Shown here piece by piece: positions 3,013 through 49,865 of a DNA stretch of 52,520 bases. The stretch is from a virus. Its lineage: Duplodnaviria; Caudoviricetes. The stretch's first letter is position 1; every line of letters begins with the position of its first letter. The notes under the pieces are model-generated. The model was not told the DNA's origin, did not search any database, and saw nothing but the letters and a program-made list of their open reading frames with translations. The stretch is from positions 1-52,520 of IMG/VR virus record IMGVR_UViG_3300031576_000059, one strand, 5' to 3'. The position numbers and the translations under genes are program-made.

Positions 3013-3402
3013 ATGAACTCCAGGTCTCGTAGGCGCCGTGGTCGAGGTTTCTGGGCTTCCTACAGCCGCCGTCGCTCCTGGGCGATCCTACTGTGGAGAC
3101 ACCTGATTGTCCTCGCCGGGGATCGGTGTCTCTGCTGTGAGATGCAAGGGATCCCTCTGACCATCGATCACGTCGTGCCTCTGGGTCTCGGAGGGCAGGA
3201 CGACATACGCAACATCCAACCTCTCTGTGGCCCCTGCAACGCGGCGAAGAACGACTCCCCCGGTCTCCGTTGCGCCGACTACCGGACTCCCGAGATCCTT
3301 CGCTTCGAACACCTCTCCTGGTCCGAGCAGGTTCGGTGCATCGTTTCCAATGGGCCTGTCCGCTTCTCCAGTGGCCCCGGCTGGGAATGGACCATCGCCT
3401 GA
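3013..3402 (+). CDS. HNH endonuclease
   Basis: CLCC...TIDHVVPLGLGG.DDIRNIQPLCGPCNAAK; stop overlaps the terL start (TGATG). Confidence 0.9.
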   Translation: MNSRSRRRRGRGFWASYSRRRSWAILLWRHLIVLAGDRCLCCEMQGIPLTIDHVVPLGLGGQDDIRNIQPLCGPCNAAKNDSPGLRCADYRTPEILRFEHLSWSEQVRCIVSNGPVRFSSGPGWEWTIA

Positions 3403-5375
3403 TGCCCTACTCCCCCGAGATCCCCGGCCACCCCCTCCTCCCTCTCGACCCCATCGAATCCCGCACTTTCACCCGCGACCTCCTCTTCGCTGGCATATAC
3501 GGTCTCGCCGAGAACACCTCGAAGGTCTGGCTCGCAACCCGCGCCCGAGCCCGCCGAGACCTCCTCTGGGCCTGTCGCAACGTCCTCAACCTCGACCGGC
3601 TCGACGAGGCGCATCACCGGCCCCCGGCGGACTTCATCATGTCCGTGTGCAAATCACCCCACGGCTTCGGGAACCTCCGCGACCCCCGCGGCAACGGCAA
3701 GACCTCCCTCAGCACTCGTGGCGGCACGGTCTGGGTGCTCATCCAAGACCCCATCGAGTGCATCGAACGCGGCTGGCCGATCCGAGGGCGCGAGAGCCGC
3801 ATCGGCATTACCACCCTCAAGATGGACCTCACCTATGACTTCATGCGCGTCGCCCTCGACGACATGAACAACGAACTCCTCCGCTGGGCCTTCCCTGAAC
3901 TCTTCCCCAGCGCCCCCCGCCGCTGGAGTATCAAGGGGATCGAACTCCGTCGCGGCCTCACCGAGGAGCTGGAGAGCCTCCGCGATCACCCCCTGTTCGC
4001 CACATACCCCTCCCAGACCAAATGGCCCGACCCGACGATCTCCCCCCGCGCCCTCGAATCCGGTGTCGCCGGCCCGCACTCCCACGGCGAATTCATCGAC
4101 GACCCTGTGAACACGAAGACTTGGAACTCCGAGACGAACATCGACAACGCGATCCACGGGATCCGGCAGCTCTTCTCCGTCACCCGCCCGGAGCAGGGGT
4201 TTCGCCTCGTCACCGGCAATCACTGGACCGCCGGAGATGTCGCCGACACCATCGACCGCCAGGACGGCAACTGGCGCGTCTTCATGCGCTCGATGACCGC
4301 GTGCACGCTGTGCCGCGACGGTTGGCCCACGGACAGCTCCGGCATCCCCGAGCGCCGCGCCGACAACCGCTGGGTCCATCAGCACGCCGACGCCGACGGC
4401 ACCCCCCTTCCGACCTTCACCTGGCTTATGAAAGAAGCCGACGGCTCCGTCCCTGATGCCGCCGTGATCTACGCCGGCTGCGCCACCAAGCACATCGCCA
4501 TGAGTCAGTACGAGAACTCCCCCTACGACTCCGAGGCGACGACCTGGGATTCCAAAACCCTCCCGCGCTTCCGCTACTTCGACGTGCCCGGCGCCATCAC
4601 CGACCCGCCGAAACTCGGCTGGCGTCTCGCCTACCCCAGCACCACAACCCCCGGCGACCTCACGACCCGCCTCTCGGACCTGCGGATCGGCATCACCTAC
4701 GACCCGGCGCACGGCGCGGACGAGGGAACGTCTCGACACGCGATAGCCGTGTGGGGCTGGCTCCCCGACGACCGCTTCGCGTGGCTCGAATCCTACACTT
4801 GGCCCAGCGCTGACGCCCTCGACGCCCTCGACACCCTCGTCTGGCTCATCCACCGTCTGCACCCGAACAAAGTGGGCATCGAGTCGGTGGGGTATCAGCG
4901 CGTGATCCGCCCGCTCATCTGGCGCGAACTCGAAGCCCGTCGCACCCCCTGCTGCTTCGTTCGCGTCACCGACCCGAAGCGCCTCGGCTGCACCGTCCAC
5001 CGCCTCGACCCGCTCGTTCGCTCCCCCATCGCCGAAGACGACATCATCCCGATCCCCCGCACCCGCGAACAAGGCCGAAAGTCCGCGTACATCCGAGACG
5101 CCCTTGGCCCGCTCATCAACACCCGCGCCATCCTCCTCCCCGCTTCCCCTGCTCCCGGTGCCGCCGAGTCCTCCCACGCCATCGACGTGTTCCCCGTCAC
5201 GATCACCGACCTCATCGACGCCGCCGCGATGATGCCGCACCTGTTCGAGGGTCGCCCGCCGGCCACGCGGGAGGCCAAGATGGAGCGGCGCCGGACGTTG
5301 AAGTTCCGCCAGCTCCGCCATCGCAAGACCGCCGGGGTGACGGGGTACGGGGACTTCGGGCGGCGCCCGCGATGA
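3402..5375 (+). CDS. terL: Terminase large subunit
   Basis: Walker A PRGNGKTS, Walker B EFIDDPVN, nuclease motifs ITYDPA, VGIESVGYQ, DLIDAAAM; lies upstream of the portal. Confidence 0.88.
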   Translation: MPYSPEIPGHPLLPLDPIESRTFTRDLLFAGIYGLAENTSKVWLATRARARRDLLWACRNVLNLDRLDEAHHRPPADFIMSVCKSPHGFGNLRDPRGNGKTSLSTRGGTVWVLIQDPIECIERGWPIRGRESRIGITTLKMDLTYDFMRVALDDMNNELLRWAFPELFPSAPRRWSIKGIELRRGLTEELESLRDHPLFATYPSQTKWPDPTISPRALESGVAGPHSHGEFIDDPVNTKTWNSETNIDNAIHGIRQLFSVTRPEQGFRLVTGNHWTAGDVADTIDRQDGNWRVFMRSMTACTLCRDGWPTDSSGIPERRADNRWVHQHADADGTPLPTFTWLMKEADGSVPDAAVIYAGCATKHIAMSQYENSPYDSEATTWDSKTLPRFRYFDVPGAITDPPKLGWRLAYPSTTTPGDLTTRLSDLRIGITYDPAHGADEGTSRHAIAVWGWLPDDRFAWLESYTWPSADALDALDTLVWLIHRLHPNKVGIESVGYQRVIRPLIWRELEARRTPCCFVRVTDPKRLGCTVHRLDPLVRSPIAEDDIIPIPRTREQGRKSAYIRDALGPLINTRAILLPASPAPGAAESSHAIDVFPVTITDLIDAAAMMPHLFEGRPPATREAKMERRRTLKFRQLRHRKTAGVTGYGDFGRRPR

Positions 5376-5396
5376 CACCCACCACACGAGTTCCCC

Positions 5397-5425
5397 TTGA
5401 CACCTCGCACGCGCAGGAGTAGCGT
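5397..5425 (+). promoter_or_regulatory. Sigma70-type promoter upstream of the portal operon
   Basis: TTGACA (5397-5402), 17-nt spacer, TAGCGT (5420-5425), intergenic. Confidence 0.65.
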
Positions 5426-5473
5426 TGCGAGGTGGCTGGACTCGGCCGGGGGGCGCGAAAGGACCACAGACCC

Positions 5474-5623
5474 ATGCCCAAGTCGAAACTCTCCCGCCGC
5501 AAGGCCGCGAAGATGCTCCACGAGGGGAAGGCGCAAGGGCACCCCCTTACGAAGGCGCAGAGGGGGTATTTCGGCGTCGTGGCGTCCGGGAAAGCGCGCA
5601 AGCGAAAACGGCGGCACTCATGA
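5474..5623 (+). CDS. Small basic hypothetical protein (49 aa)
   Basis: MPKSKLSRRKAAKMLHEG...GHPLTKAQRGYFG; follows the promoter and is coupled to the next ORF. Confidence 0.65.
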   Translation: MPKSKLSRRKAAKMLHEGKAQGHPLTKAQRGYFGVVASGKARKRKRRHS

Positions 5624-5685
5624 GTCTCCTCCGTACCCTCCTCTTCGCTCGCCGCCTCTATCACTTCCTCAAGGAGACCCCAGAC

Positions 5686-5910
5686 ATGCTCTCCAAACTC
5701 TTCCCCAGCACGAACGGTCCCGGCGTGTCCAAGAAGATCCTCGTCCTCTTCATCACTGGCACCCTCCTCCCCGTCCTCAACCTCCTCGACACCCCGATGT
5801 GGATCGTCCAGGGCATCGGGCAGCTCGGGGCGATCTACCTCGGCGGGCAATCTCTGGCAGACGCCGCTGGGGCGTATGGGAAATCCAAGAATGGCACTGG
5901 CAGCCACTGA
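5686..5910 (+). CDS. Small membrane protein, holin-like (alternative start 5620)
   Basis: SD AAGGAG; SKK followed by two hydrophobic segments and YLGGQSLAD. Confidence 0.55.
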   Translation: MLSKLFPSTNGPGVSKKILVLFITGTLLPVLNLLDTPMWIVQGIGQLGAIYLGGQSLADAAGAYGKSKNGTGSH

Positions 5911-6103
5911 GTCTCGCGCTCGCACAGTCTCTGCGCCCCCCTTGCAGTTCGTCTGGCGCCGCACCGTGATTCGCCACATCGAAGACCCCCCGAACGTCTA
6001 CGCCCTCTACTCCTGCACCGAATGCGGATGCAGCATCGAGGCCCGCGAGGGTGAGATCCTCGCTTCCCTCGACGCGCACTGCAAGCTCTGTGAGCCTCGC
6101 TGA
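5891..6103 (+). CDS. Small Zn-finger-like protein
   Basis: CTEC...HCKLC; fills the gap before the portal. Confidence 0.55.
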   Translation: MALAATESRARTVSAPPLQFVWRRTVIRHIEDPPNVYALYSCTECGCSIEAREGEILASLDAHCKLCEPR

Positions 6104-6104
6104 C

Positions 6105-8141
6105 ATGGCGCCCCGGAAGAAGGCATCGAGCGCGCTCGCCGTGAGCCCCGCCCCCGAGGCCCCCTACCTCCTCAAGCTCACCCCCGCTCAACTCACCCGC
6201 CTCGAATCCCAGATCACCATCGCCTACGAGCACCACATGCGGGTGCTTCGTCCCTACCACACCAAGATCAAGCTCTGGCGCGACCTCTACGACGGCGGCG
6301 ACGCGGTGCGCCCGACCCCTGAATCCCGTCCCTGGTCCGACGCCTCGGCGATCTTCTTCCCCCTCCCGCGGATGGTCGCCGACACCGCCTCCGCCCGCAT
6401 CACCCAGACCCTCACCCAGCAGCGCGACTTCCTTGCCGTCGAGGCCACGATCCAATCCTCCGACTACTCCCGTCTCTCCGGCGGCGGCGACTTGCTTGAG
6501 GACATCAACGCCTTCCGCCGTGGCGCGAACGAGATCCTCTGGGACGAACGCCAAATCGACATCCGCACCGTCGCCGACCAGCTCGCCTCCGAGTCGAGTC
6601 AGATCGGCACCTGTATCTCTCGCACCGCTCACAGCTTCCGTCGCGCCCCCCGCAAGCTCCAGATCGACGGTCAGGGATCGGTGTTCACCGCGGAGAACCT
6701 CACCCTCTCCGACCGCGTGGAGATCCGCGTGATCCCGATGGAAGCCTGCGTCTGGGACACCACCGCTCGCATCTCGAACGACATCTCCTTCTTCACCTAC
6801 CCCTTCGAACTCAGCTACCCCCTACTCAAGAACGACCCGACCTTCAACGAGGCCACCGTCGCCGACATCCTGATCCACCCTGACAGCACCCCCACCGACT
6901 CCACCTCTGATCGGATGCGCCGTGCCCATCTCGACCCCTCCACAGGTCCGATAGAGGAGGTACAAGACTCCAAGGGCGTCCCGCACCCCGTACCCTTCGG
7001 CTCCCGCTACACCCTCCACGAGGTCTATCTCCGCAACATCGACGTGAACGACGACGGAACACTCGAAGACGTGATCGTCACGTGGCACCGCGCCTCCCAC
7101 AAAATCGCCCGCGTGATCCTCTTCCACTACATCCACAACGAATCCCCCATCGACTTCCTCTGGTATCAGCAGCGCCACAACCACCCCATCGGCCAAGGCG
7201 TCATCGAACCCGGCGAGACCCTCGCCGCTGGCGTCAACACCATCGCCAACCAGACCATCGACGCTCAAACCATCCGCAACACCCCGACGATCATCACCGA
7301 CGAGAACTCCGAGGCGGCGGACGACCTGGAAGCCGACGGCTGGCACCCCGGACAGATCCTCCGCAAGCGCACGGGGCAGGAGATCAAAACCCTCGAATTC
7401 GGCCAGTCCAGCGCCGTGCTCTCCCTCTCGATCTTCGACCGCTTCGTGGACATCTACTTCCGCATCAACCACCTCGGCCCGGCGCAATTCGGCGACGTGC
7501 GCTCAGCCCAGCGCGCCCCCGCGGACCTCGGGCAATCGATCATGCTCGAAGGCTTCGCGCTCCTGGATAAAGTGATCTCCCGCTTCCGCTCCACCCTCAC
7601 CAGCGTCTGCTCGAAGGCGCTCGCAATCACTTGGCAAACGAACCCCGCTGCGTGGGCTCGCGCTGTCGGACCCGAGGATTTCGCCAAGATCAAGCGCCTC
7701 ATCGGTACCCTTGGCTGGAACGGTCTCTCGCTCGACCTCAACATCTCCTCCGCCGCGCACTCCCGCGAACTCGACCGCCAGAACACCGGCGCGGCCTTCC
7801 AGTCTCTCGGTCAGTACCAGCGTGCGATCCTGGAGGTCATCGGCCTCGCGTTCGGCACCGTGGACCCCAAAACCGGCGAACCGCTCCCCCAGAACCAGCT
7901 CCTCCAATCCACCGCCGCGAAGTTCATCCGATCTACTCAGATCGCCATGCGGCAATTCTTGGACAAGTTCCCGAACATCACCGACCCCGAGGAACTCACC
8001 CCCGACGTGGCGAGCGACGTGGAGGCCGCGGCAGCCGCAGTGACCAGCGGCGGCTCTCCCATTGCCGGTCAAGCCGTGTCTCCGCTTGCGCCGGTGTTCG
8101 CTGGTCCGGGCGCCGGGGCGATTCGGCAGGGAGCCATGTGA
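6105..8141 (+). CDS. Portal protein
   Basis: 678 aa after terL; P22/podovirus portal-like features (GQGVIEP...VNTIANQTIDAQTIRNTP, PGQIL). Confidence 0.8.
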   Translation: MAPRKKASSALAVSPAPEAPYLLKLTPAQLTRLESQITIAYEHHMRVLRPYHTKIKLWRDLYDGGDAVRPTPESRPWSDASAIFFPLPRMVADTASARITQTLTQQRDFLAVEATIQSSDYSRLSGGGDLLEDINAFRRGANEILWDERQIDIRTVADQLASESSQIGTCISRTAHSFRRAPRKLQIDGQGSVFTAENLTLSDRVEIRVIPMEACVWDTTARISNDISFFTYPFELSYPLLKNDPTFNEATVADILIHPDSTPTDSTSDRMRRAHLDPSTGPIEEVQDSKGVPHPVPFGSRYTLHEVYLRNIDVNDDGTLEDVIVTWHRASHKIARVILFHYIHNESPIDFLWYQQRHNHPIGQGVIEPGETLAAGVNTIANQTIDAQTIRNTPTIITDENSEAADDLEADGWHPGQILRKRTGQEIKTLEFGQSSAVLSLSIFDRFVDIYFRINHLGPAQFGDVRSAQRAPADLGQSIMLEGFALLDKVISRFRSTLTSVCSKALAITWQTNPAAWARAVGPEDFAKIKRLIGTLGWNGLSLDLNISSAAHSRELDRQNTGAAFQSLGQYQRAILEVIGLAFGTVDPKTGEPLPQNQLLQSTAAKFIRSTQIAMRQFLDKFPNITDPEELTPDVASDVEAAAAAVTSGGSPIAGQAVSPLAPVFAGPGAGAIRQGAM

Positions 8142-8362
8142 TGCAGGTATTTCACGATATCGTCTCCAGCCCAGGCCTAGTGGAGGTCTACGTCAGGAAA
8201 ACCGAAACCGGAGAGGATCTCCTGCACCTCATGATCTTTCCGAGAGGAGAACTCCTGGAGATCCTCCTCGTGGACAAGAAAGACTTCGTTCCGGTGGTGA
8301 ATGTCCGGTACGATTCTAAGGCTGCCGTCGATGCCGCGGCGCCTCAGCAGGGAGCGCTCTGA
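8141..8362 (+). CDS. Hypothetical protein (probable insertion)
   Basis: TGATG coupling to the portal; codon usage differs from neighbours. Confidence 0.6.
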   Translation: MQVFHDIVSSPGLVEVYVRKTETGEDLLHLMIFPRGELLEILLVDKKDFVPVVNVRYDSKAAVDAAAPQQGAL

Positions 8363-8363
8363 C

Positions 8364-8612
8364 ATGTCCCTCCGAGTCCAGGTCCAATGCAAGCGCTGCG
8401 GCACCCGCACCGAACTCCCCCCCGGCAGCGCTCCGGCACCTCTCTGCGGCACGTGCGCCAAGCACTCCGGCGCTCCACACCCCGACACTCTTCTAGCGAA
8501 TCGCGCCTACCGTGCCATGAAGCGCCTGCACGGCATCGATCCCGAAACCGGCGCCCGTAAGCTCTCCCCGTTCCAGCGCGGCGCGTTCGCGTTCGTGAGG
8601 CGGCAGCGATGA
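8364..8612 (+). CDS. Zn-ribbon protein
   Basis: CKRC...CGTC; SD GGGAG. Confidence 0.6.
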   Translation: MSLRVQVQCKRCGTRTELPPGSAPAPLCGTCAKHSGAPHPDTLLANRAYRAMKRLHGIDPETGARKLSPFQRGAFAFVRRQR

Positions 8613-8851
8613 GCGCCCCAAGCCCCTTCGAGATTCTCTACACCTCCACAGCGTTTCAGGATCTCCTCCGCGACTTCAACCGGGAGCGCGACGCCACCCT
8701 CGCCGAGCACGTCGCTGCGGTCCAATCCGCTCGCTCCCTCGACGCCGCCACAGCCTCCATCTTCGCTGCCGGCGCCGTCTCCGGCATCGACCGAATCTTC
8801 TCCATCATCAACCGCCGGCTCAAGAAGTCGGCGAGACCCGTGGAGTCCTGA
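8609..8851 (+). CDS. Hypothetical protein
   Basis: ATGA coupling; helical 80 aa, typical of post-portal ORFs. Confidence 0.65.
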   Translation: MSAPSPFEILYTSTAFQDLLRDFNRERDATLAEHVAAVQSARSLDAATASIFAAGAVSGIDRIFSIINRRLKKSARPVES

Positions 8852-8852
8852 C

Positions 8853-9731
8853 ATGCCCGAAAAACCCCCCGACGCCAAAGCCACCGTAGACCGCCTCCTA
8901 GAGGGCCTCTCCAAGCTCGACGAGACGATCCGAGCCCGCGCACAAGACCCGCCTCGTAACACTCCTCCGCTTGTCGATCCCAACGCTCCACCTCCTCCCA
9001 TTGTCCCCACCGCCGTCGCCGACAAGTTCGACGAACTTATCAACGCCGGCAAGGGCCGCGAGGCCATCGAGTTCTTCGCTCGCCACATGCAGGACACCAC
9101 CGTCGCCCCGGCGCACGGCCAGATGAAAGCCCTCGCCCGCGCTGCCGCGAACGCGAACCTCTCCCAGCTCCGCTCGAAGTACGGCGAGAAGTTCACGAAG
9201 CGCGAACTGCTCTTCCGCGAGCAGCAGCGCGTCGCCAGCGTCCCCGACGAGTGGCTCATGGACATGGACACCTGTGAGCGCCTGTTCGCCCTCACCATCG
9301 GCGCCGATAGAGATGCCTACGTGAAGGAGGAATCGGAATCCCTAATCGTCGCCGCCGTGACCGAGCGCGAGGCCCAACTTCGCGCCGAATCCCTCCCGCT
9401 CCTCGCCCCGATCTCCGCGATCACCCACGCCTTCCCCGAGACCGAGCGCGAGCGCGTCACCAACGTCCTCAAGCACGCCGGGTTCGAAGACGACGAGGTG
9501 ATCCGCTACCTCCGTTCCCGCATCGAGGACTACAACTCCCGCGGCGCCAACATCACTTGGCCCGCGATCATCCGGCAGATCGAGAAGCAATCCTCCCCGC
9601 GGCACACCGTGACGCACGGCGTGGGGCCGTTTAGGAAGCGCACATGGACCATGACTGGTGAACACCCGGAGGATGAACGCGCCGAAGCCGAAAGGCGTGC
9701 AGCCGCCACTCGGGCTGCCGCAGGAGCCTGA
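8853..9731 (+). CDS. Putative scaffolding protein
   Basis: Helical, charged protein between portal and capsid (positional inference). Confidence 0.5.
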   Translation: MPEKPPDAKATVDRLLEGLSKLDETIRARAQDPPRNTPPLVDPNAPPPPIVPTAVADKFDELINAGKGREAIEFFARHMQDTTVAPAHGQMKALARAAANANLSQLRSKYGEKFTKRELLFREQQRVASVPDEWLMDMDTCERLFALTIGADRDAYVKEESESLIVAAVTEREAQLRAESLPLLAPISAITHAFPETERERVTNVLKHAGFEDDEVIRYLRSRIEDYNSRGANITWPAIIRQIEKQSSPRHTVTHGVGPFRKRTWTMTGEHPEDERAEAERRAAATRAAAGA

Positions 9732-34396: not shown

Positions 34397-34558
34397 TCAG
34401 CTTCCAAGATACATCTCCTTGAACCTCGGCGGCACCCCGAGGGGCACCCGCTCTCCGCAATCGCACACGGCCCGCAGCGCCCCGAGCAGCCCTGGTAGGA
34501 ACATCTGGCCGCAGGCGGAGCACGTATGTGGGGCCTCTCTTAGCCATGCGCCTGTCAC
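34397..34558 (-). CDS. Small Zn-ribbon protein
   Basis: CSAC...CDC; GTGA coupling to the polymerase stop. Confidence 0.45.
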   Translation of the reverse strand: MTGAWLREAPHTCSACGQMFLPGLLGALRAVCDCGERVPLGVPPRFKEMYLGS

Positions 34559-36042
34559 AGCACCCTCTCCATCCCCCCCGGATTCCCCTCGCTCTTCGGT
34601 CCCCAATTCCTTCCTCGACTCACCTCCACCCTCGGTCTCCATGTCGCCTTCCCTATGAGCGCCTCGAACTCCGGCACCTCGCGCTCAAGTGTGTGTTTGA
34701 CCTCCTTCGTCAGCCTCTCCGCTTCCTCCTCCCGGACCTCCACGACGTGCTCATCGTGCTGCACAGTGTACAAGCCCACTCCCAGCGCCGTCAGGTCCGC
34801 GATCCCCACGAGATGCAGCACCGCATTCATGCTCTGCGGCCCCGTTGCTAGCGCCTCCTTGCGCTGCTTGCTGTCGAGCATGAGCACCCGCCTGCCTCCA
34901 GAAGACTTCGCCGTCACGTCGAAGAACCTCCTCCTGAACCCGAACACCGTTCGCAACTCCCTACGCGCCAGCACCTCCTCCTCTACCCCCTTTTGCCACA
35001 CCGGGATCTCCGGCCACGCAGCGAAGTAGGCCGCTCGTCCGGCCGCTGCCAACCGCTGCTCGATCCTCATCCGCCGAGCGAGGTTGAAATCCCCTTCACC
35101 ATAGTCCTCTGCGTGGGTGAACGTCTTGCACACCGAGCGCCGCGCTTTCCACCCCGCCTTGTCGTTCCACGACCACCCGAAGATCGGCGCCAGCAGCTCC
35201 AGGTTCTGTGAATGGATGTCCTCTTCGCGCTCATAAGCCTCCACCGCTCGTCCGCACCTCGCTGCGATCATCGTCATGATCCACTCGATCTGCGCCGCAT
35301 CCGCCGCGAGCAGCACATGCCCCGGCCGCGCCACGTAGATACTCCTCACGTCCTTTGGGATGTTCTGCCCGTTGTAATCCTCCTCCTCGATTGGAACGTC
35401 CTCGCGGATCGCCCCTGAGCGGATCCGCAGCGTTGAAGTGCCACACAACGACGAGTTCGGATGCGCACATCCATCCACCCCTATCGGCGGATCCAGAAAC
35501 GTCCGTAGTCGCTGCCCTACGTGCGCGAGGGAGATCAGCGTCCGCAGCAGCGGCACGGCCGCATCCGGCGTCGAGCGTAGCTCCAACAGCTCCTGGAGCA
35601 CGAGGAGACGGACGCTGCGGATCCCCGTGTCCGTCCACCCAATCGCCGGCCACTTGAGCCCCAGCTCCTCGCCCAGCAGCCACCTCACATGATCCGGCTT
35701 CACCGGGTTGAAGTTCGACAGCCTCAGCTTCCGCCGCACCACCGGGCTCGCCTTCCACTCCCGGATCGCCGCACGCCGCTCGGCGCACCGCTCGCACTTC
35801 CGTACCCCTTCTCCTCGATTCGGGTGCGGATGCTCGCTGCACCCCTCGACCTCCGGGCCATCGATCTTCGGCACCCTCGGCGCGGCCACTGCGAGCACCT
35901 CGTCCGAGGCCCTGGCGTGCTCCTTCTTGGCCTCCTCGCGCTTGCGCTCCAGCTCCTCGGTGTCCACCAGCATCCCTCGCCGCCGCATCGCTACGAGCGG
36001 GGCGAGAGTGGGGGCGATGATCGACGAGTAGAGGGGGCGCAT
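34555..36042 (-). CDS. polA: Family A DNA polymerase, polymerase domain only
   Basis: RGMLVD, FNP, NGQNIP, motif A LLAADAAQIE, motif B RSVCKTFTHAEDYG, TVFGFRRRF, motif C VQHDE. Confidence 0.93.
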   Translation of the reverse strand: MRPLYSSIIAPTLAPLVAMRRRGMLVDTEELERKREEAKKEHARASDEVLAVAAPRVPKIDGPEVEGCSEHPHPNRGEGVRKCERCAERRAAIREWKASPVVRRKLRLSNFNPVKPDHVRWLLGEELGLKWPAIGWTDTGIRSVRLLVLQELLELRSTPDAAVPLLRTLISLAHVGQRLRTFLDPPIGVDGCAHPNSSLCGTSTLRIRSGAIREDVPIEEEDYNGQNIPKDVRSIYVARPGHVLLAADAAQIEWIMTMIAARCGRAVEAYEREEDIHSQNLELLAPIFGWSWNDKAGWKARRSVCKTFTHAEDYGEGDFNLARRMRIEQRLAAAGRAAYFAAWPEIPVWQKGVEEEVLARRELRTVFGFRRRFFDVTAKSSGGRRVLMLDSKQRKEALATGPQSMNAVLHLVGIADLTALGVGLYTVQHDEHVVEVREEEAERLTKEVKHTLEREVPEFEALIGKATWRPRVEVSRGRNWGPKSEGNPGGMERVL

Positions 36043-36305
36043 CAACTGGCCCACTTGGCAAACTCGCCGGAGCAATCAGCGAGGGGCGCATCCTCGTACT
36101 GCGTGTTCCACCCGGCTACTGGCTTGATTTTTCCAAGTCTCCTAAACTTCTTGAACATCTCGGCTAGAGACTCGTAGGTGAAATCCACACAAGCGAGGTT
36201 GTCACCGTAGATCCACTCCGGCTCCCCGATTTCCCTCCATCCCAGAAGCACGTTGATTGAGATCAACGCCGCGGCGAGACCCGAGAAGAATCGTCGGCGG
36301 GTCAC
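36042..36305 (-). CDS. Small protein with a twin-arginine-like N-terminus, inserted in the polymerase locus
   Basis: MTRRRFFSGLAAALISINVLLG; coupled at both ends (GTGA, TGATG). Confidence 0.65.
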   Translation of the reverse strand: MTRRRFFSGLAAALISINVLLGWREIGEPEWIYGDNLACVDFTYESLAEMFKKFRRLGKIKPVAGWNTQYEDAPLADCSGEFAKWAS

Positions 36306-36442
36306 GTCCGCTCCAGAGCGTCGATGATCTCGTTGATCTTCCTTCGTACTTCTCTCAGCTCCTCGGCTGTTGTGTTCCCCGGTACCCCAGGAGCAAGATC
36401 ACTGTCCCGCGGAATCGTCTCGTCGAGTTTCTCGATCTTCAT
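36302..36442 (-). CDS. 46-aa protein inserted in the polymerase locus
   Basis: TAATG coupling, SD GGGAGG; MKIEKLDET...RRKINEIIDALERT. Confidence 0.65.
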   Translation of the reverse strand: MKIEKLDETIPRDSDLAPGVPGNTTAEELREVRRKINEIIDALERT

Positions 36443-37671
36443 TAGATCCACCCCTCCCTTCGACACACCTCATTCTGTTCCGCCCACAACCTCCTCGTCG
36501 AATCCACGTCCAGCGCGCAGTATCCCGCTCTCCACTGCCCATCCGTGATCGGTATCAAGGGTGCAGGCATCATTGCTGCCCATGCCGCCCTCAGCGCCGT
36601 CTGCCTCCTCACTTCATCCGGCTTCACCGCCCCACTCAACTCCTTCCAATACGGCCTCTCGTGCCCGAACCTCAGCGCCGACCGGAACGCTAGCCCTCTC
36701 GCAAGGTCCGGCTCGCACAGCCCTCCCTGTGCCATCGTGTCCTCGAACGGCGGCACGACATCGATCCCCGCCTCCTCCAGCCTCGGAATATCGAACCCCT
36801 GGATGTTGTGCCCTACCTTCACCACTGGCATCCGCATGAGCCTCCGCACCTTCTCCCTTGCGCTCCACCACGCCTCCCCGTACACCGGCCCTCCATCGAG
36901 CGCCTGCATCCCGATCCACTCGATCCTCCCCGTCCCATCCGTCTCCAGGTCGAACACGAACCCTCCCCGGAGCCTCGCCTCCTCGATTCCCTCGTGCATC
37001 ACAAACGGCATGAACTTCCGCCCTCGTCGAACGACCTGGAGCAGGCGCATCGTGTCGAGCCCCGGTACAGCCCTGTAGGCCATCGCAGGGAACTTCTCTA
37101 ACCTCTTCCTCCTGATGATCGCCGCTGGGTGGATCGACACCCCAATCCAATCCACCTCCTGCGGCACCGGGCACCTCTCCCCAACCGCCGCGTGCATCGC
37201 AGCGACCTCTCTCTGACTCCACACCGCTCCTCGGTGCTTGAGCAACCTCGCCGACCCTGCGGCCGGCACGATAGGCCCGAGCACGCTCCTCAGCGCCGCG
37301 CCTCCGAGCAGCATCACACCCCTCGGCCGTACCTGCCGCAAGAACTCCTCCACCCTCTCTCTGCACACCCTCACCGCTCGGATCTCCTTCATCCCTCCCT
37401 TATCTGGGCGAGCGCACTGGTGGGCGTTCTCGACAGCGACCTCCACTCTCGCTAGCCCTACCCTCCCGAGCGTCCCGACCTCCAACTCCCTCCCCGCGGC
37501 GCCGACGAAACAGTGAGGCCCCGGCTCGTCTCGTGCAGCCGCCCTCACTTCATCCTCCGCCGGCCCCTCCCCGATGAACGCCACCTCCACCCCGGCTCGC
37601 CGTTCCGTGGAGCGGACGACACCTAGCCCTCCGCTCCACGGACAGTCACGGCAGGGCTCAACCAGCGGCAC
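36442..37671 (-). CDS. Family-4 uracil-DNA glycosylase fused to a 3'-5' exonuclease (N-terminal half of an SPO1-like polymerase)
   Basis: CRDC, FIGEGP, FVGAAG, QCARP, IHPAA; ExoI FDLET, ExoII GHNIQGFD, ExoIII YCALD. Confidence 0.9.
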   Translation of the reverse strand: MPLVEPCRDCPWSGGLGVVRSTERRAGVEVAFIGEGPAEDEVRAAARDEPGPHCFVGAAGRELEVGTLGRVGLARVEVAVENAHQCARPDKGGMKEIRAVRVCRERVEEFLRQVRPRGVMLLGGAALRSVLGPIVPAAGSARLLKHRGAVWSQREVAAMHAAVGERCPVPQEVDWIGVSIHPAAIIRRKRLEKFPAMAYRAVPGLDTMRLLQVVRRGRKFMPFVMHEGIEEARLRGGFVFDLETDGTGRIEWIGMQALDGGPVYGEAWWSAREKVRRLMRMPVVKVGHNIQGFDIPRLEEAGIDVVPPFEDTMAQGGLCEPDLARGLAFRSALRFGHERPYWKELSGAVKPDEVRRQTALRAAWAAMMPAPLIPITDGQWRAGYCALDVDSTRRLWAEQNEVCRREGWI

Positions 37672-40486: not shown

Positions 40487-40805
40487 CCCCGTCCTCCTTG
40501 TGTCCCGTGCCGCTTCCCGAGATACTCCTCCAGGTACGTCCCCCTATTCGGCAGCCCGCGCATGTCGCGCCTCCAGAATTGCGCCCCCGCCCACCCGCAC
40601 CGTGCGGGAGCCGGGCGCACCTTGCCGAGGATGCCCGGCACGGACGGGGGCGCGAGATCGCACCACTTCTTCTTCAATGGGCAGCCTCGATTTGAACGAG
40701 GGACGAGAAGGGCTTCTCTCGTCATATTAGCCTTGGGGACCAATGACCCCCCTTGCGCCTTTGTACCGGGCCAACGCCACGTCTCTGCCCATCGAAACGC
40801 CTACG

Positions 40806-45399: not shown

Positions 45400-45657
45400 T
45401 CACCCTTCACGACTTACCTCCACCTGGACCTCGAACTCCAGATCCCCGAGGATCTCCGAGATCAACCTCGGCTGCTGTGATCCATCCATCGAAAACCACG
45501 GGATAATCCTCCCGTCCTCCGGCGGATCAGGGGTGATCCACAACCCCCGCTCCCACGCAGATCGCAGGAACCCTAGCATCTCCCCTTTGTACCTCACCCG
45601 AAGCCCCACAAGCTGTCGCTGAGGCTCCAATTCCGTCGCTCGAATCCACTGGGTCAC
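45400..45657 (-). CDS. Hypothetical protein
   Basis: GTGA coupling to the RadC-like gene. Confidence 0.55.
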   Translation of the reverse strand: MTQWIRATELEPQRQLVGLRVRYKGEMLGFLRSAWERGLWITPDPPEDGRIIPWFSMDGSQQPRLISEILGDLEFEVQVEVSREG

Positions 45658-46106
45658 ATCAGCCCCCTCTCCCTCATCGACACGAGCCCTCTCGGACTCA
45701 CGATCAGGTGATCGTACAACCCGATCCCCAGGATGTCCGCCGCTTTCCGAATCGCCATCGTGAAGTCCTGGTCCTCCTGGCTCACCTCCAGGCTTCCAGA
45801 CGGATGATTGTGCGCGAGGATCACCCCCATCGCCCCATGATCAATCGCCGGCTTGAATATCTCTCTCGGATGCGTGTGGGTGGTGTTTAGGCTCCCCACC
45901 GAAATCTCCTCCCTCGCAAGGAGCTGATTCTGAGCGTCGAGATAGAGTCCCACGAGGTGCTCGCGCTTCATCTTCGACAGCCCACGAACAACGGCGTAGG
46001 CGGTCTTGGGATCGGAGATCGCCTGTGCCTCCCTCACCTCCACCTGTCCCCCGCACATCTCGCACACCGCGTAGCTCCCCTTACCGTTCGCTTTATACTT
46101 GCTCAT
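45654..46106 (-). CDS. radC: RadC-like JAB domain protein
   Basis: REHLVGLYLD.QN, GSLNTTHTHPREIFK.A, ILAHNHPSG...SQED, LYDHLIV. Confidence 0.93.
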   Translation of the reverse strand: MSKYKANGKGSYAVCEMCGGQVEVREAQAISDPKTAYAVVRGLSKMKREHLVGLYLDAQNQLLAREEISVGSLNTTHTHPREIFKPAIDHGAMGVILAHNHPSGSLEVSQEDQDFTMAIRKAADILGIGLYDHLIVSPRGLVSMRERGLM

Positions 46107-46297
46107 GCCGTCCCTCTCTGCCTCCTAAGCAGCCTCTTGAAACACCGCTCCCCACACGTATCGACGTGCTCACTCTGCCCACGCCCCGGTCCAAGTGGCT
46201 TCAACAGCCTCCCGCAGATCACGCACTGGCGCGGCTGGACTTCTCGCCCCTGTTGAATCCAGATTCCCCGTGTCATCTCACCCTCCAACAGTTGCAC
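46103..46297 (-). CDS. Zn-finger hypothetical protein (start may be further downstream)
   Basis: CVIC...TCGERC. Confidence 0.5.
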   Translation of the reverse strand: MQLLEGEMTRGIWIQQGREVQPRQCVICGRLLKPLGPGRGQSEHVDTCGERCFKRLLRRQRGTA

Positions 46298-46473
46298 TCC
46301 GGCGGCGCGCAGCAGCTACATTCCGCCAAGAGAGTCCCACTACATAGCAGGCACCTCCAGACATTCCCTCTCAGGTACACCGCATCGTTCTGTTCTGCCT
46401 GCCACCGGACATTTACAACCGTCTGCTTCGTTTCCCTCGCAAGCTCAACCGCCCGTTCATCCGTTAGGATCAT
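46273..46473 (-). CDS. Cys-rich hypothetical protein
   Basis: ATGA coupling to the E1 gene; CLLC...CSCC...CNC. Confidence 0.5.
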   Translation of the reverse strand: MILTDERAVELARETKQTVVNVRWQAEQNDAVYLRGNVWRCLLCSGTLLAECSCCAPPECNCWRVR

Positions 46474-47150
46474 GCCGCCCTCACCTCCTCCACGAAACCC
46501 GCTCGGAAGTTCCACTCCACCCTCTCCGGGAGCACCCTATCCCCCCTCTCCCCCGCGAGCCACATCGTGAGCGCCGCTCCCGTGATCGCCGCCGCGTTCG
46601 AGCACAGCGCCCTCGCGCCGCACTCCGAATGCGTGTATGTCACCCCGAACAGGCTCCTCTCGAAGTCCTCCACGCTCGTCGGAGGGCAGAACACCACGCT
46701 CCCTCCCTCCGGTGCCACCCGCACGTCGATGATCCGCCGCGGCGCTCGTCCTCGTGTCATCGCCGCTCGCCATCCGTCGATTGTGGCGTGCCATCCCTCC
46801 TCCGCGTCTGCGCACATGAACACCACCTTCTCGTCGAGAAGCGGTTGTCCAGGGGCTCCTGTGAACATCTCAGGGATCGCCCGCACCCGCAACCCCGTCA
46901 TGAGCCGGATCCCCCGTGCCAGCGCCCTCACCTTCGCCTCCCCCACAGCCCCCGGAGCATACACCTGCGCCGGCAGGTTGTGAGGCTCCACCTTGTCGGC
47001 ATCCATGACCATAACGCTCTCGAACCCCATCTTTGCGAGCTGGAGCGTAAACCAGCTCCCCGTAGTCCCGGCGCCGAGGATGAGCACCTCCACGCGCCGG
47101 AGCGCTGCCGGGACCAGTCCCTCCTGCCGTCTGTAGTCCGCCGCTGTCAT
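46470..47150 (-). CDS. E1/ThiF-family ubiquitin-like activating enzyme
   Basis: YRRQ, LILGAGTTGS, MDADKVEPHNLPAQ, GEAKV, CAD, IIDVR, candidate catalytic Cys in SECGAR. Confidence 0.92.
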   Translation of the reverse strand: MTAADYRRQEGLVPAALRRVEVLILGAGTTGSWFTLQLAKMGFESVMVMDADKVEPHNLPAQVYAPGAVGEAKVRALARGIRLMTGLRVRAIPEMFTGAPGQPLLDEKVVFMCADAEEGWHATIDGWRAAMTRGRAPRRIIDVRVAPEGGSVVFCPPTSVEDFERSLFGVTYTHSECGARALCSNAAAITGAALTMWLAGERGDRVLPERVEWNFRAGFVEEVRAA

Positions 47151-47151
47151 G

Positions 47152-48048
47152 TCAGGCACAGCTCTCCTCCCACTCTTGAAGGTATGCCTGGAGCACCCGC
47201 CGCATGAGCTTGAACTTCCGCACCTGGACCCAGCTCCCCGACGTTCCACGAGGCTCCCCAGCCCATCGCCACAGTTTCCCGTTCGTGACCTCGTAGATCA
47301 ATCCCCCCACCGTGGTCTGTTGCCCCTCGAACGCCTCCAGCTCGTCCACCACCTCCACCCTCGTCATCCCCTTCACCGAGGTGAAGTCGTCCGCGCTAGT
47401 CCCTCCACCTCCCCCACCAGCGATCTCGCCAGTCCTGGAGAGGCTCCCCACAAAAGGGCGAGTGGTGTCCTCCCCATCGAAGTTGAACGATCTCACACCG
47501 TCGAGGAGCGAAATCGTCGCCCGCTTCGTCGCCGCCCTCGCCGCCGCGGCCTGCTCCGCCTCCCACGGATACGCCACTCTCTCCTCCACGAACTCCAGGT
47601 CCGTGATCCTCACGAACACCGGCTTGTTCACGTACAGCTCCCCGGCGATCTCCCCCTTGAGATTGTGCGTGATCCCCACGCACCAGTCCTTCGCGCCGAA
47701 GTGCTTGAGCAGACTCTTAGAGTCCTCGCTGCTTCGGTGCGCCGCCAGTGCCGCATGGCTGTGCCCCTCCATGTTCAGGTCCGCCGGGTCACACCCATCG
47801 GCGAACACCCTCTCGTAGAGCGCGCTCACCTCCTCCGCGTCGATGTCCCCGTGCGCTGCCCCGACCTTCTGCACCGCTGGCAGCCACACCCGCTCCACGC
47901 GCACGCACGAGGAACTCACCAGCCTCGCAATCCCCAGCCACGCGATCTCCGTAGCCGTCCCGCCCCCGTTGTCATCCAGCCCCGCGTTCTCGATCCACGT
48001 CTTCACGAGTGCGAGGATCTCGTTCGGAAACCTCACTTTGACAGGCAT
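47152..48048 (-). CDS. Prokaryotic JAB/MPN+ metallopeptidase
   Basis: TEIAWLG (catalytic Glu), LPAVQKV, GHSHAALAAHRSSED (HxH-x7-S-x2-D); SD AGGAGG. Confidence 0.85.
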   Translation of the reverse strand: MPVKVRFPNEILALVKTWIENAGLDDNGGGTATEIAWLGIARLVSSSCVRVERVWLPAVQKVGAAHGDIDAEEVSALYERVFADGCDPADLNMEGHSHAALAAHRSSEDSKSLLKHFGAKDWCVGITHNLKGEIAGELYVNKPVFVRITDLEFVEERVAYPWEAEQAAAARAATKRATISLLDGVRSFNFDGEDTTRPFVGSLSRTGEIAGGGGGGTSADDFTSVKGMTRVEVVDELEAFEGQQTTVGGLIYEVTNGKLWRWAGEPRGTSGSWVQVRKFKLMRRVLQAYLQEWEESCA

Positions 48049-48057
48049 TCTCTCCTC

Positions 48058-49200
48058 CTAGCGGCGTGACTGTAGCTCGCCGTCTCTGTACGCCGCGATC
48101 ACGCACTTGGCACTGCAATACTCCCCCTCGCCGTCGCCCGAGCGGAAACCCTCATCGCACCCCAGACAGGTGCTGAACGTCTCGCCGTAGCAGGCCTCAC
48201 AGTAGGAGTCTCCGCTGTGGTCAATCACGTCGTCGCAGTGGACGTACTCCGAGCAACTCGTACATACGGAGTAGTCCCCCCGACACTCGGCGCAGACACG
48301 CCTGCCAGATAGATCCTCCGTCTCCCCGACGGTACCGCAATTCTCACATGTCGTCTCCGACTCTCCCGGAGCCTCACCTACCAAGTCTGGCCCAGGCGCC
48401 CCACCTGACGCCTCCGTCTCCACCGCCACTACCTCCGCAGTCCTCGTCAGCTCCGCATTGAACACCCCTTCACGCGCCACACCACTGCACCCAGGACAGC
48501 CCATCGCCACCGCGAGGCTCCAGTAGACCCTCTTCCCCAGCGGTCTGCACGTCGGGCACATCACCAGCTCTCTGTAGTGCTCCGGCCCGCAATACGGCAC
48601 ATCCCCGTCCCCGTTCCCGCTCCTCCCCGGTTGGGACTCCAGCAGCGCTCGCACTGTGTCAAACACCATCGCGTACCTGCCGGCTTCTATCAGCGAGCGA
48701 ATGGACTCCTTCGCCGTGCCCAGGCAGATGAGCTGCTCACTAGCATGAACCCCGTAATGGTTATGCGGCCCGAATCCGGGGGGCGCCCCATTCACTCCCG
48801 GCAGCAACGCCTCTCCACTCGGGAGCACCACGCCTCCGAGCCAGCGGATGTTGAGCCTGCTGTCCACCGGTGGAGCTACTGGCACCTCCACCGCCCCTAA
48901 GAACTCGAACCCTCCACTCTTGAACCTCATCGGCATCACGAGGGCCTCTCCGCTTCTTGTCGCTCGCACGCCCATCTCCACGAGCGCCTCGGGCTCACTG
49001 GCTCGAACCTCCGCCCAGTGGCGCTCGGTCTCGTTGAGCTGGCGTCTGACGTTCTTCAGAGACTCCTCGGCTGACTCCAGGAGGGCCTCCCGTGAGATCA
49101 CCGTTGTACCCAGCGCCTCGCACTTCCGCCTCCCCTCCGCCCCGAGCGCCGCGGCTATCTCCTGTCTCGCAAACATGCACACCGCCATCCGATCCATCAT
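48058..49200 (-). CDS. Prokaryotic E2-like protein with an N-terminal coiled coil and C-terminal CxxC repeats
   Basis: HNHYGVHASEQLICLG followed by helices resembles the E2 HPx...ICL signature; located between the Ubl and JAB genes. Confidence 0.65.
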   Translation of the reverse strand: MMDRMAVCMFARQEIAAALGAEGRRKCEALGTTVISREALLESAEESLKNVRRQLNETERHWAEVRASEPEALVEMGVRATRSGEALVMPMRFKSGGFEFLGAVEVPVAPPVDSRLNIRWLGGVVLPSGEALLPGVNGAPPGFGPHNHYGVHASEQLICLGTAKESIRSLIEAGRYAMVFDTVRALLESQPGRSGNGDGDVPYCGPEHYRELVMCPTCRPLGKRVYWSLAVAMGCPGCSGVAREGVFNAELTRTAEVVAVETEASGGAPGPDLVGEAPGESETTCENCGTVGETEDLSGRRVCAECRGDYSVCTSCSEYVHCDDVIDHSGDSYCEACYGETFSTCLGCDEGFRSGDGEGEYCSAKCVIAAYRDGELQSRR

Positions 49201-49212
49201 CCCCGCCCTCTC

Positions 49213-49248
49213 AAAAATGCAGGGGGAGCCATGCCCCGCTCCCCCTGC
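49213..49248 (-). terminator. Intrinsic terminator between the Ubl and E2 genes
   Basis: 11-bp stem GCAGGGGGAGC/GCTCCCCCTGC followed by ATTTTT. Confidence 0.75.
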
Positions 49249-49270
49249 GAGAATCACGCCCGAGGCGCCG

Positions 49271-49582
49271 CTACGACCGGACCTTGTACTCCGGCGCCAC
49301 CATCACCCTCGCGCCTTCGGGGATCGTCACGTTGAGCCCCGCCGACTCCCCGTTGATGCGGATGTGCGACTTCGGGTCCAGGAGGGCCTCCTGGAAATCC
49401 CCGAACTCCTCCCCGCACTCCTCCGCGGCCACGCCGTTGAGGGTGAGGTACGACCCCTCCATGCGACCCGGCGAGGCGTCGTACTCCGCGATTCCCCTCA
49501 CCGTGAACGGCACCCCGTTGTGCCCCGACACCTCCACCGCGAAGGTCGTGCTGAGGCTCCCCACGAACATGCTGCACTTCAT
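49271..49582 (-). CDS. Ubiquitin-like (beta-grasp) protein
   Basis: C-terminal IRINGESAGLNVTIPEGARVMVAPEYK matches the ThiS/MoaD pattern; SD GAGGGAG; first gene of the cassette. Confidence 0.7.
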   Translation of the reverse strand: MKCSMFVGSLSTTFAVEVSGHNGVPFTVRGIAEYDASPGRMEGSYLTLNGVAAEECGEEFGDFQEALLDPKSHIRINGESAGLNVTIPEGARVMVAPEYKVRS

Positions 49583-49667
49583 CTTTTGCTTCTCCCTCTT
49601 GCGAATCACCTCGATCACCGGTGATCGGGGTGCCGTGCAACTGCAACACCCTTCACCACTCGAACAC

Positions 49668-49865
49668 CTACCCCCTCGCCCTCACCTCCCTCCCACGGTG
49701 CGCCGTGAGGTACTCCCTCCGCCTCTCGGCCTCCACGGCCTCGCTGCGCCTCAGCTCCTCTGCGAGACCCCGCATTGCCTCCCGCGTCTCCGCGCTTGGG
49801 AGATGCGCCCGCATCCCTTCGAGCTGCCGGAGCACCTCGCTAGAGAGTCTATCCCTAATTGTCAT
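49668..49865 (-). CDS. Hypothetical protein
   Basis: SD GGGAGG. Confidence 0.55.
   Translation of the reverse strand: MTIRDRLSSEVLRQLEGMRAHLPSAETREAMRGLAEELRRSEAVEAERRREYLTAHRGREVRARG

Follow-up and report, generated by a model that had tools for sequence, protein, structure and literature searches.

The genome of a tailed phage (Caudoviricetes) recorded in IMG/VR as IMGVR_UViG_3300031576_000059, the 52,520 nucleotides of which constitute the window analysed here, carries on its minus strand (positions 46470–49582) four adjacent open reading frames (ORFs) in the order Ubl-E2-JAB-E1, encoding a putative ubiquitin-like protein (Ubl), an E2-like protein, a JAB/JAMM metallopeptidase and an E1-like enzyme of the ThiF family. 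A reading of the sequence alone (hereafter the original prediction) had proposed that this block is a phage-encoded Ubl conjugation cassette; the ORF list confirms that the four genes are neighbours and co-oriented, and the motifs named in that proposal are all present, namely the E2-like stretch HNHYGVHASEQLICLG and the CxxC repeats, the E/HxH/S/D site of the JAB peptidase, and the nucleotide-binding loop and Cys177 of the E1. We consider the cassette to be, more probably than not, a divergent copy of a widespread and unnamed phage-borne operon for a SAMP2/ThiS-like Ubl, an E2 of the ubiquitin-conjugating (UBC) fold, a JAMM peptidase and a minimal E1 of the ThiF type. The module to which it belongs is large and contains a new E2 family. 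The identity of the cassette is secure; conjugation by the window copy is conjectural. The analysis establishes homology, the class of fold and the retention of catalytic residues, and we infer all of the chemical steps and the targets.

The module in other phages

Relatives of the cassette were reached through its E1, the three other proteins having no detectable ones in direct searches. The Ubl, E2 and JAB sequences each retrieved only their own protein from a word-indexed search of 5.8 billion proteins, and E2 and JAB had no relatives among viral contigs queried singly. A phmmer search of 1.8 billion representatives with the N-terminal part of E2 returned its own protein and two coiled-coil matches only. 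The E1 sequence, when used as a tblastn query, identified 38 phage records, 29 of which belong to the Flavobacterium phage FpV4 group and four to Xanthomonas phages; in phage Ep032 the E1 was the only match. Upstream of the ThiF gene of FpV4 lie the genes for gp51, a JAMM-motif protein, then gp52, a 420-aa protein with the signature HSH...FCIGS, and then gp53 (positions 1607–2476 of locus L002), a 289-aa protein whose Ubl-like N-terminal part ends in ...KSGG and is followed by an acidic, Lys/Glu-rich extension of ∼200 residues. gp53 may be a precursor that is cleaved by the neighbouring JAB. The order in Xanthomonas phage PhiXhv-12 is a 140-aa ORF ending in ASGG, an 892-aa protein that has Cys-rich ends and the signature HPH...SLCLGS, and the ThiF gene.

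IMG/VR was scanned with four aligned E1 sequences, which yielded at least 200 relatives; 80 viral loci were kept, and all of their 4,089 ORFs of 50 aa or more served to build profiles by iteration. Next to the E1 gene a JAB was found in 77 of the 80 loci, a relative of the protein in the E2 position in 76, and a profile-detected Ubl in 29; all four components were present in 27, of which 15 have the gene order of the window. The synteny search that the original prediction had called for therefore recovers the same module in other viruses, with E2 adjoining E1. Proteins in the E2 position fall into a main family (38 proteins) and an FpV4-like family (39 proteins), which are homologous to each other (hhalign 89%, E = 2.1e-6), HPHV aligning over HSHL and CLG over FCLG. 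The second scan, of one genome per species, produced 287 E1 relatives; in the 80 loci kept from it, mostly contigs of metagenome-assembled genomes (MAGs), JAB was found in 36, E2 in 40, Ubl in 39 and all three in 21.

Several loci depart from the common arrangement. Three E2-family ORFs (206, 378 and 412 aa) surround a single JAB-E1 pair in locus L006 (positions 4549–9335), which suggests E2 duplication within one phage. An E1 relative occurs five or more times on one Myxococcota chromosome (loci L104, L115, L116, L120 and L123), with no JAB, E2 or Ubl family near any copy, and this looks like a different, repeated system containing an E1. In a further set, mostly Methylomirabilota MAG contigs (L108, L110–L112, L117, L127, L128, L138, L142, L146 and L148), E2 stands directly before E1 and Ubl after it; none of these E2-E1-Ubl loci yielded a JAB relative.

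No description of a phage-encoded Ubl-E2-JAB-E1 cassette was found in the full-text literature, subscription journals lying outside the scope of that search, and supplementary operon tables might list cases. The available portions of PMC1779556 cover phage TAPI/TAPK and bacterial operons only, those of PMC7824862, on jumbo phages, do not mention JAB, ThiF or Ubl, and those of an Asgard-virus preprint deal with viral E1 homologues only. Likewise, no such cassette was found described in the available portions of PMC10557695 and PMC13288928.

Enzymes and putative modifier of the cassette

The E2-like protein consists of a long N-terminal coiled-coil-like helix, a UBC-like core (approximately residues 73–202) and a Cys-rich array at its C-terminus. 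It is recognised by no Pfam, NCBIfam or PADLOC model, and the same is true of its relatives (12 compared with Pfam, and four with NCBIfam and PADLOC). Common to proteins of the main family are a long helix at the N-terminus, four strands, a motif approximating HPH[VI]-x3-5-G-x2-C-[LW]-G, and two subsequent helices. In all 33 aligned domains the Cys and the Gly that follows it are unchanged; the His and Pro reach 90% conservation or more, and His predominates at the third position. When compared with the PDB, a profile of the E2-position domains matched human UBE2L3/UbcH7 (E = 7.7e-5, 26 bits), with helix 1, the beta-meander, HPH over HPN, and the catalytic Cys all in register; the best 15 rows of this search were UBE2L3 without exception, and most of the 60 rows listed were E2 enzymes. 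Against a profile built without it, the window protein scored 19.2 bits (E = 2.2e-4 among the 4,089 ORFs), and hhalign placed it in the family at 92.1%, the 43 aligned residues comprising the active-site loop and helices.

AlphaFold2 models were obtained for residues 48–222 of the window protein (numbering of the 399-aa form; predicted local distance difference test, pLDDT, 78.8) and for the domain without its helix (pLDDT 70.6, predicted template-modelling score 0.66). Coiled coils dominated the structure search with the first model, which included the long helix, and the sole globular match was CdnG-E2; the domain was refolded without the helix. Comparison of the helix-free model with 48,161 chains using VIA-align placed E2 enzymes at all of ranks 1–15 (Z 5.0–5.4), the best being 1zdn_A (Z 5.4, root mean square deviation 4.6 Å, 102 residues aligned), and the remaining 50 rows are by title nearly all E2, UEV or RWD-type proteins. 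Lower matches included CdnG-E2 (Z 5.0), BubB (9eav_D; Z 4.4, root mean square deviation 3.8 Å, 90 residues) and Cap2 (Z 4.3). Sequence identity between the model and its structural matches is ∼10–17%. Because this uniform list agrees with the independent match of the sequence profile, the assignment of the 379-aa protein as a predicted UBC-fold E2 with a conserved Cys is supported. The original prediction had named the absence of a UBC fold in this product as the finding that would overturn it, and neither the profile, which led to UbcH7, nor the structure search, which led to E2 enzymes, refuted it on this point.

Cys-rich tails are present in 11 of the 38 unique family E2s. The tail of the window protein gives weak matches of the LIM type (PDB, E = 0.56; Pfam CEP104_ZnF, E = 0.016, below the cut-off) and probably consists of LIM-like fingers or zinc ribbons; this tail and the N-terminal helix are candidates for binding partners or substrates. 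The Atlas connected the E2 with clusters that bear amidoligase and LIM domains, but with TM values of 0.22–0.30, below the naming bar, this lead was discarded; it probably reflects the Cys-rich tail only.

The E1 passes the Pfam ThiF model (PF00899; 59.5 bits against a cut-off of 28.1) and matches the family profile built without the window at 99.9% (hhalign). It has a single adenylation domain with a GAGTTGS loop and Cys177, and is probably a homodimer. It retains 26 of the 31 columns with conservation of 75% or more among 70 relatives, and the adenylation-site residues kept are R8, G26xG28xxG31S32, D50, D52, N58, Q62, K73, D115 and R144; Cys177, too, is retained, in a column that is 100% conserved among the 70. 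All curated NCBIfam models remain far below their cut-offs (ThiF PRK08644, 54 against 159; PRTRC_ThiF, TIGR03736, 38.8 against 144.75; 6A-MBL cap2_3, 44.5 against 320), and the best curated matches are to ThiF and MoeB models. In the PDB the E1 matches Cap2 (E = 1.1e-5), PaaA, the NEDD8 E1, MccB and Uba4.

The presence of PaaA and MccB among these matches (E = 6e-5 to 8e-4) raises the question of whether the E1 might be a peptide-modifying adenylase that acts on a C-terminus other than Gly and yields a modified peptide or protein in place of a conjugate. MccB acts on a C-terminal Asn, and the presumed substrate ORF in the window ends in Ser, not Gly. However, the matches are limited to the common Rossmann part (residues 39–114), the conserved partners of the E1 are an E2 and a JAMM peptidase, and no export or immunity genes were seen among the ORFs scanned. 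We regard this explanation as highly improbable.

The JAB protein has an N-terminal JAMM domain of ∼165 aa and ∼130 C-terminal residues of no assigned kind. Its zinc site is complete (E34, H96xH98, S106 and D109; HSHx7SxxD at residues 96–109), and the five residues are invariant in 26 of 26 aligned JABs, in a register that agrees with the 69-sequence family. The family profile matches Rpn11 (E = 1.7e-12) and CSN5 (E = 1.2e-4), as well as BRCC36, AMSH and archaeal JAMM1. The window protein matches the JABs adjoining E1 in the viral loci directly (phmmer, E = 1.8e-9 and weaker) and the family built without it at 99.0% over 141 columns (hhalign). An Atlas search gave a Prok-JAB lead, the Pfam Prok-JAB model had no match to the window protein, and the JABs of the relatives match PADLOC JAB models weakly (15–24 bits).

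The small-ORF family is, judging by its profile, a beta-grasp modifier family. The profile matches Pyrococcus PF1061/SAMP2 over the full length to the terminal GG (E = 3.4e-8), and TtuB, ThiS and MoaD in the PDB with E values of 0.009–0.03. The Pfam cut-off for ThiS (22.5 bits) is passed by two of the 15 Ubl relatives scanned (25.2 and 24.3 bits), and others touch SAMP2, Ub-Mut7C and TGS. Among the tails of 28 unique relatives, 12 have GG followed by up to three residues, 15 have G followed by up to three residues, and one is of another kind; the residues after the Gly are compatible with trimming by the JAB. SAMP2, Rpn11 and UbcH7 are thus the closest solved relatives of the Ubl, JAB and E2, respectively.

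Matches of the E1 to curated ThiF and MoeB models, all far below the cut-offs, and of Ubl relatives to ThiS could also be taken to mean that the cassette is a sulfur-carrier pathway. In such a pathway a ThiS/MoaD-like protein would be adenylated and thiocarboxylated by the E1, for thiolation of a cofactor, tRNA or metabolite, and the JAB would expose the C-terminus of that protein in the manner of CysO-Mec. However, the best Ubl match is a protein modifier, SAMP2. A UBC-fold E2 with an invariant Cys, present in 76 of the 80 viral loci, is not part of this picture either. No rhodanese, cysteine desulfurase, ThiG, MoaE or similar protein was found among the ORFs scanned, and general library scans of 32 ORFs (PHROGs) and 10 ORFs (Pfam and NCBIfam) returned no thiamine or molybdopterin gene, in agreement with the original prediction. 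Sulfur carriers also typically end in GlyGly, and the window ORF has no such ending. A sulfur-carrier function is accordingly very unlikely, albeit slightly less so than a peptide-modifying one.

Known systems and the divergence of the window copy

The original prediction had placed the cassette near the PRTRC, Bil and Bub systems. The likeness in components is real, but as membership the kinship does not hold: because curated cut-offs and defining architectures are not reached, the cassette is, on sequence grounds, a member neither of these three systems nor of the type II antiphage signalling systems based on cyclic oligonucleotides (CBASS). PRTRC is borne on mobile elements and combines a ThiF-family E1 with E2-like and Ubl-like partners. 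The match of the window E1 to TIGR03736 is the weak one given above, and the other PRTRC models (proteins A–F) had no match in 10 window ORFs or 15 relatives.

The bacterial antiphage system Bil (BilA Ubl, BilB E2, BilC JAB, BilD E1) has, according to the portions of PMC11601596 available, the same four component types in one operon. The E1 found here, of 226–229 aa and with one ThiF stretch, falls outside the definition of Bil given in those portions; moreover, the cassette is encoded by a phage, whereas Bil resides in a host defence island. The cassette would work like Bil-type Ubl-E2-JAB-E1 operons without being a member of Bil. Bub (6E/DUF6527) resembles it in having a Ubl, an E2, a JAB and a small homodimer-type E1-like adenylation domain, and BubB is among the structural matches of the E2 model. 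Bub systems, as described in the same portions of PMC11601596, possess Ubl-E2 and JAB-E1 or E2-E1 fusions, a DUF6527 serine protease, a catalytic Ser in E2 and an E1 without catalytic Cys. The phage cassette, in contrast, has four separate genes and an invariant Cys in both E2 and E1; DUF6527 had no match in the 10 ORFs scanned with Pfam.

Similarity to type II CBASS (Cap2, an E1-E2 fusion, and Cap3, a JAB) is confined to the Rossmann part of the E1, which matches Cap2 in the PDB and the PADLOC 'E1-E2' models over residues 33–129 only. There is no E1-E2 fusion in the cassette, and the modifier is a separate Ubl, not a CD-NTase; no search aimed at a CD-NTase elsewhere in the window was made. 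The archaeal small archaeal modifier protein (SAMP) system (SAMP2, the E1 UbaA and JAMM1) provides the best solved relatives of the Ubl family (SAMP2 and PF1061), includes JAMM1, which is among the JAB matches, and has in common with the phage module a small ThiF-type E1. SAMPylation is not known to need an E2, whereas a UBC-fold E2 is a conserved member of the phage module. The eukaryotic E2s, represented by UbcH7, have the UBC fold in common with the phage proteins, including helix 1, the beta-meander, an HPN-like motif and a catalytic Cys in register; they differ in that the phage family has HPH, and the window protein HNH..G, in place of HPN and in that the phage proteins add a long N-terminal helix and often a Cys-rich tail.

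By analogy with E1/E2 cascades, the E1 would adenylate the C-terminus of the Ubl with ATP and may then hold it as a thioester on Cys177, from which it would pass to Cys158 of the E2. The E2 would transfer the Ubl to a target, its N-terminal helix and zinc-finger array presumably supplying partner or substrate contacts, and the JAMM peptidase would trim residues after the Gly of the Ubl, remove conjugates, or both.

A number of observations weigh against this reading of the window copy. The Ubl ends in ...APEYKVRS and is the only one of 27 aligned sequences without a C-terminal Gly (V101 in the window; Gly in 26 of 26 relatives), which weighs against canonical conjugation in this phage. Its membership in the family is weak as well. 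Against a profile built without it the window ORF scored 15.1 bits (E = 0.0045 among the 4,089 ORFs, residues 68–100), first after the 29 seeds; hhalign gave 27% over the C-terminal 35 residues only, and Pfam had no match. The claim of a beta-grasp Ubl therefore stands for the family, with its matches to SAMP2 and ThiS, and is left for the 103-aa window ORF at weak sequence similarity plus gene position. In the E1, the Arg of the DNMxAR stretch, 99% conserved in the 70 relatives, is replaced by W120 (DAEEGW), DNxxAR-type motifs being general to E1s, and the terminal branch is the longest of 116 E1 sequences (1.78 against a median of 0.23). The window E2 reads HNHYG for HPH: the His (H147) is kept, the two positions after this His are Y and G, and a Gly thus occupies the E2 Asn/His position. 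Finally, the structural scores of the E2 model are modest (Z 5.0–5.4 against the tool's caution level of 8), and Foldseek searches of the E2 models against the PDB and BFVD gave no match with E ≤ 1e-3.

The missing Gly is the same in a second assembly. In Logan's independent assembly of run X1, which may be from the same sample, a 52,423-base contig (depth 21) shows no differences over positions 46400–49700, which excludes an error of a single assembler as the source of the Ubl ending. The glycine-less Ubl and the loss of the E1 Arg mean either that the pair is co-adapted to an unusual C-terminus or that conjugation is impaired, and the pattern of divergence fits a fast-evolving, still selected cassette and also one that has lost conjugation and kept another activity.

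It is possible, and we put it forward tentatively, that tailed phages of numerous lineages carry a complete Ubl conjugation machinery built around a new E2 family (HPH...CLG, coiled coil and often a zinc tail) which tags host or phage proteins during infection, and that the window copy activates a Gly-less modifier, with the Arg-to-Trp change in the E1 as its match. Less likely than the explanation favoured above is that the cassette descends from a conjugation operon but no longer conjugates here because its Ubl cannot be activated, the enzymes being kept for another role or the cassette decaying; the JAMM peptidase and the E2 could, for example, serve in counter-defence, removing or redirecting the Ubl-type immunity of the host (Bil or type II CBASS, for instance). 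The Ubl ending, the substituted Arg, the altered HPH and the long E1 branch are all consistent with the loss of conjugation, and the active site of the JAB is by contrast fully intact. Against it, the four ORFs are intact with a gene-like GC content at third codon positions (GC3 0.77–0.95), and the ATP-binding residues and Cys177 of the E1 as well as Cys158 of the E2 are kept. As for the tagging pathway that the original prediction attributed to the phage, its enzymes (E1, JAMM peptidase and UBC-fold E2) and an ORF in the Ubl position are in place, but the modifier of the window is without the C-terminal Gly.

Genome context and implications

The window is a complete phage genome: the record represents a whole virus with direct terminal repeats, and its completeness was estimated at 100%. 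A PHROGs scan of 32 ORFs identified the large terminase (positions 3270–5375), tail and virion proteins, a DNA polymerase and a Sak4-like protein, which bears out the phage context assumed from the outset. Structural genes occupy ∼3.3–33.7 kb on the plus strand, and replication and accessory genes ∼34–51 kb on the minus strand. There is no close cultured phage: none of 50,697 phage records was matched by the cassette (blastn) or by the large terminase subunit, E2 and JAB (tblastn).

Features of the Ubl-E2-JAB-E1 cassette are collected in Table 1. The E1 ORF extends at its fullest over positions 46470–47249 (259 aa), and its likely starts overlap or abut the JAB stop. E2, JAB and E1 are tightly spaced and have ribosome-binding sites. 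The GC3 of the four ORFs resembles that of other window genes, with 0.95 for the Ubl ORF.

Table 1. Positions of the cassette genes and associated features in the window.
Feature	Position	Strand	Remarks
Putative Ubl	49271–49582	−	103 aa from ATG 49582; ORF open to GTG 49618 (49271–49618, 115 aa)
E2-like protein	48058–49197	−	379 aa from ATG 49197, most likely start; alternative GTG 49257, 399 aa
JAB/JAMM metallopeptidase	47152–48048	−	298 aa from ATG 48048; AGGAGG 8 nt upstream of ATG
E1-like ThiF-family enzyme	46470–47159	−	226–229 aa; likely start GTG 47159 or ATG 47150
E2 active-site stretch HNHYGVHASEQLICLG	48718–48765	−	Residues 145–160 of the 379-aa form; candidate catalytic Cys158 at 48724–48726
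E2 Cys-rich C-terminal region	48061–48558	−	7 CxxC pairs, 18 Cys
Terminator-like hairpin	49219–49248	−	11-bp stem, 9 GC pairs, then T run; between Ubl stop and E2 start

A scan for hairpins found two such sites in 5.6 kb, compared to 1.6 expected in shuffled sequences, and is by itself not significant; the position between the Ubl and E2 genes is no more than suggestive. A frameshift fusion of Ubl and E2 in the style of type I Bub was considered and rejected: the E2 frame is open for only ∼11 codons upstream of the Ubl stop, the hairpin lies between the two genes, and the independent assembly contains no indel. In the window, and likewise in FpV4 (primase, uracil-DNA glycosylase and exonuclease) and PhiXhv-12 (topoisomerase), the cassette lies amid genes for replication and recombination, a setting that suggests expression in the early or middle phase.

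A RadC-like JAB-domain protein (PF04002, 131 bits; phrog_10276, 'DNA repair protein') is encoded immediately downstream of the cassette, at 45654–46106 on the minus strand, which places two genes for JAB folds within 1.5 kb. As phmmer found none in the 80 viral loci, it was rejected as a fifth member of the cassette. Between E1 and the RadC-like gene (46103–46515, minus strand) are two short ORFs rich in Cys (80 and 64 aa), the status of which as genes is uncertain; they had no family match and no relatives among the fetched loci. Elsewhere on the minus strand, the DNA polymerase is divided between two ORFs (34555–36075 and 36442–37671) that match successive parts of phrog_17 (positions 673–826 and 844–1232) and lie ∼370 bases apart; either an intervening element or a natural division of the gene could account for this. 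ARAGORN predicted a tRNA-Trp (CCA) at 40677–40773 on the same strand, which at 97 bases is long for a tRNA and may carry an intron or insertion.

Operons of Ubl, E1, E2 and JAB are known as bacterial antiphage defences (Bil, Bub and type II CBASS). Here the picture is reversed, such an operon being a conserved module of the phages themselves, which may tag proteins for takeover, counter-defence or the exclusion of rivals. The E2 family has gone unseen by Pfam, NCBIfam and PADLOC, yet its nearest solved relatives are eukaryotic E2s, and it bears on the origin of the eukaryotic E2. The module is directly testable, since canonical copies are carried by cultured phages (the FpV4 group, with 29 records, and PhiXhv-12, in which the cassette was seen). 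The glycine-less modifier of the window copy is either a natural experiment in the specificity of E1 or part of a decaying system.

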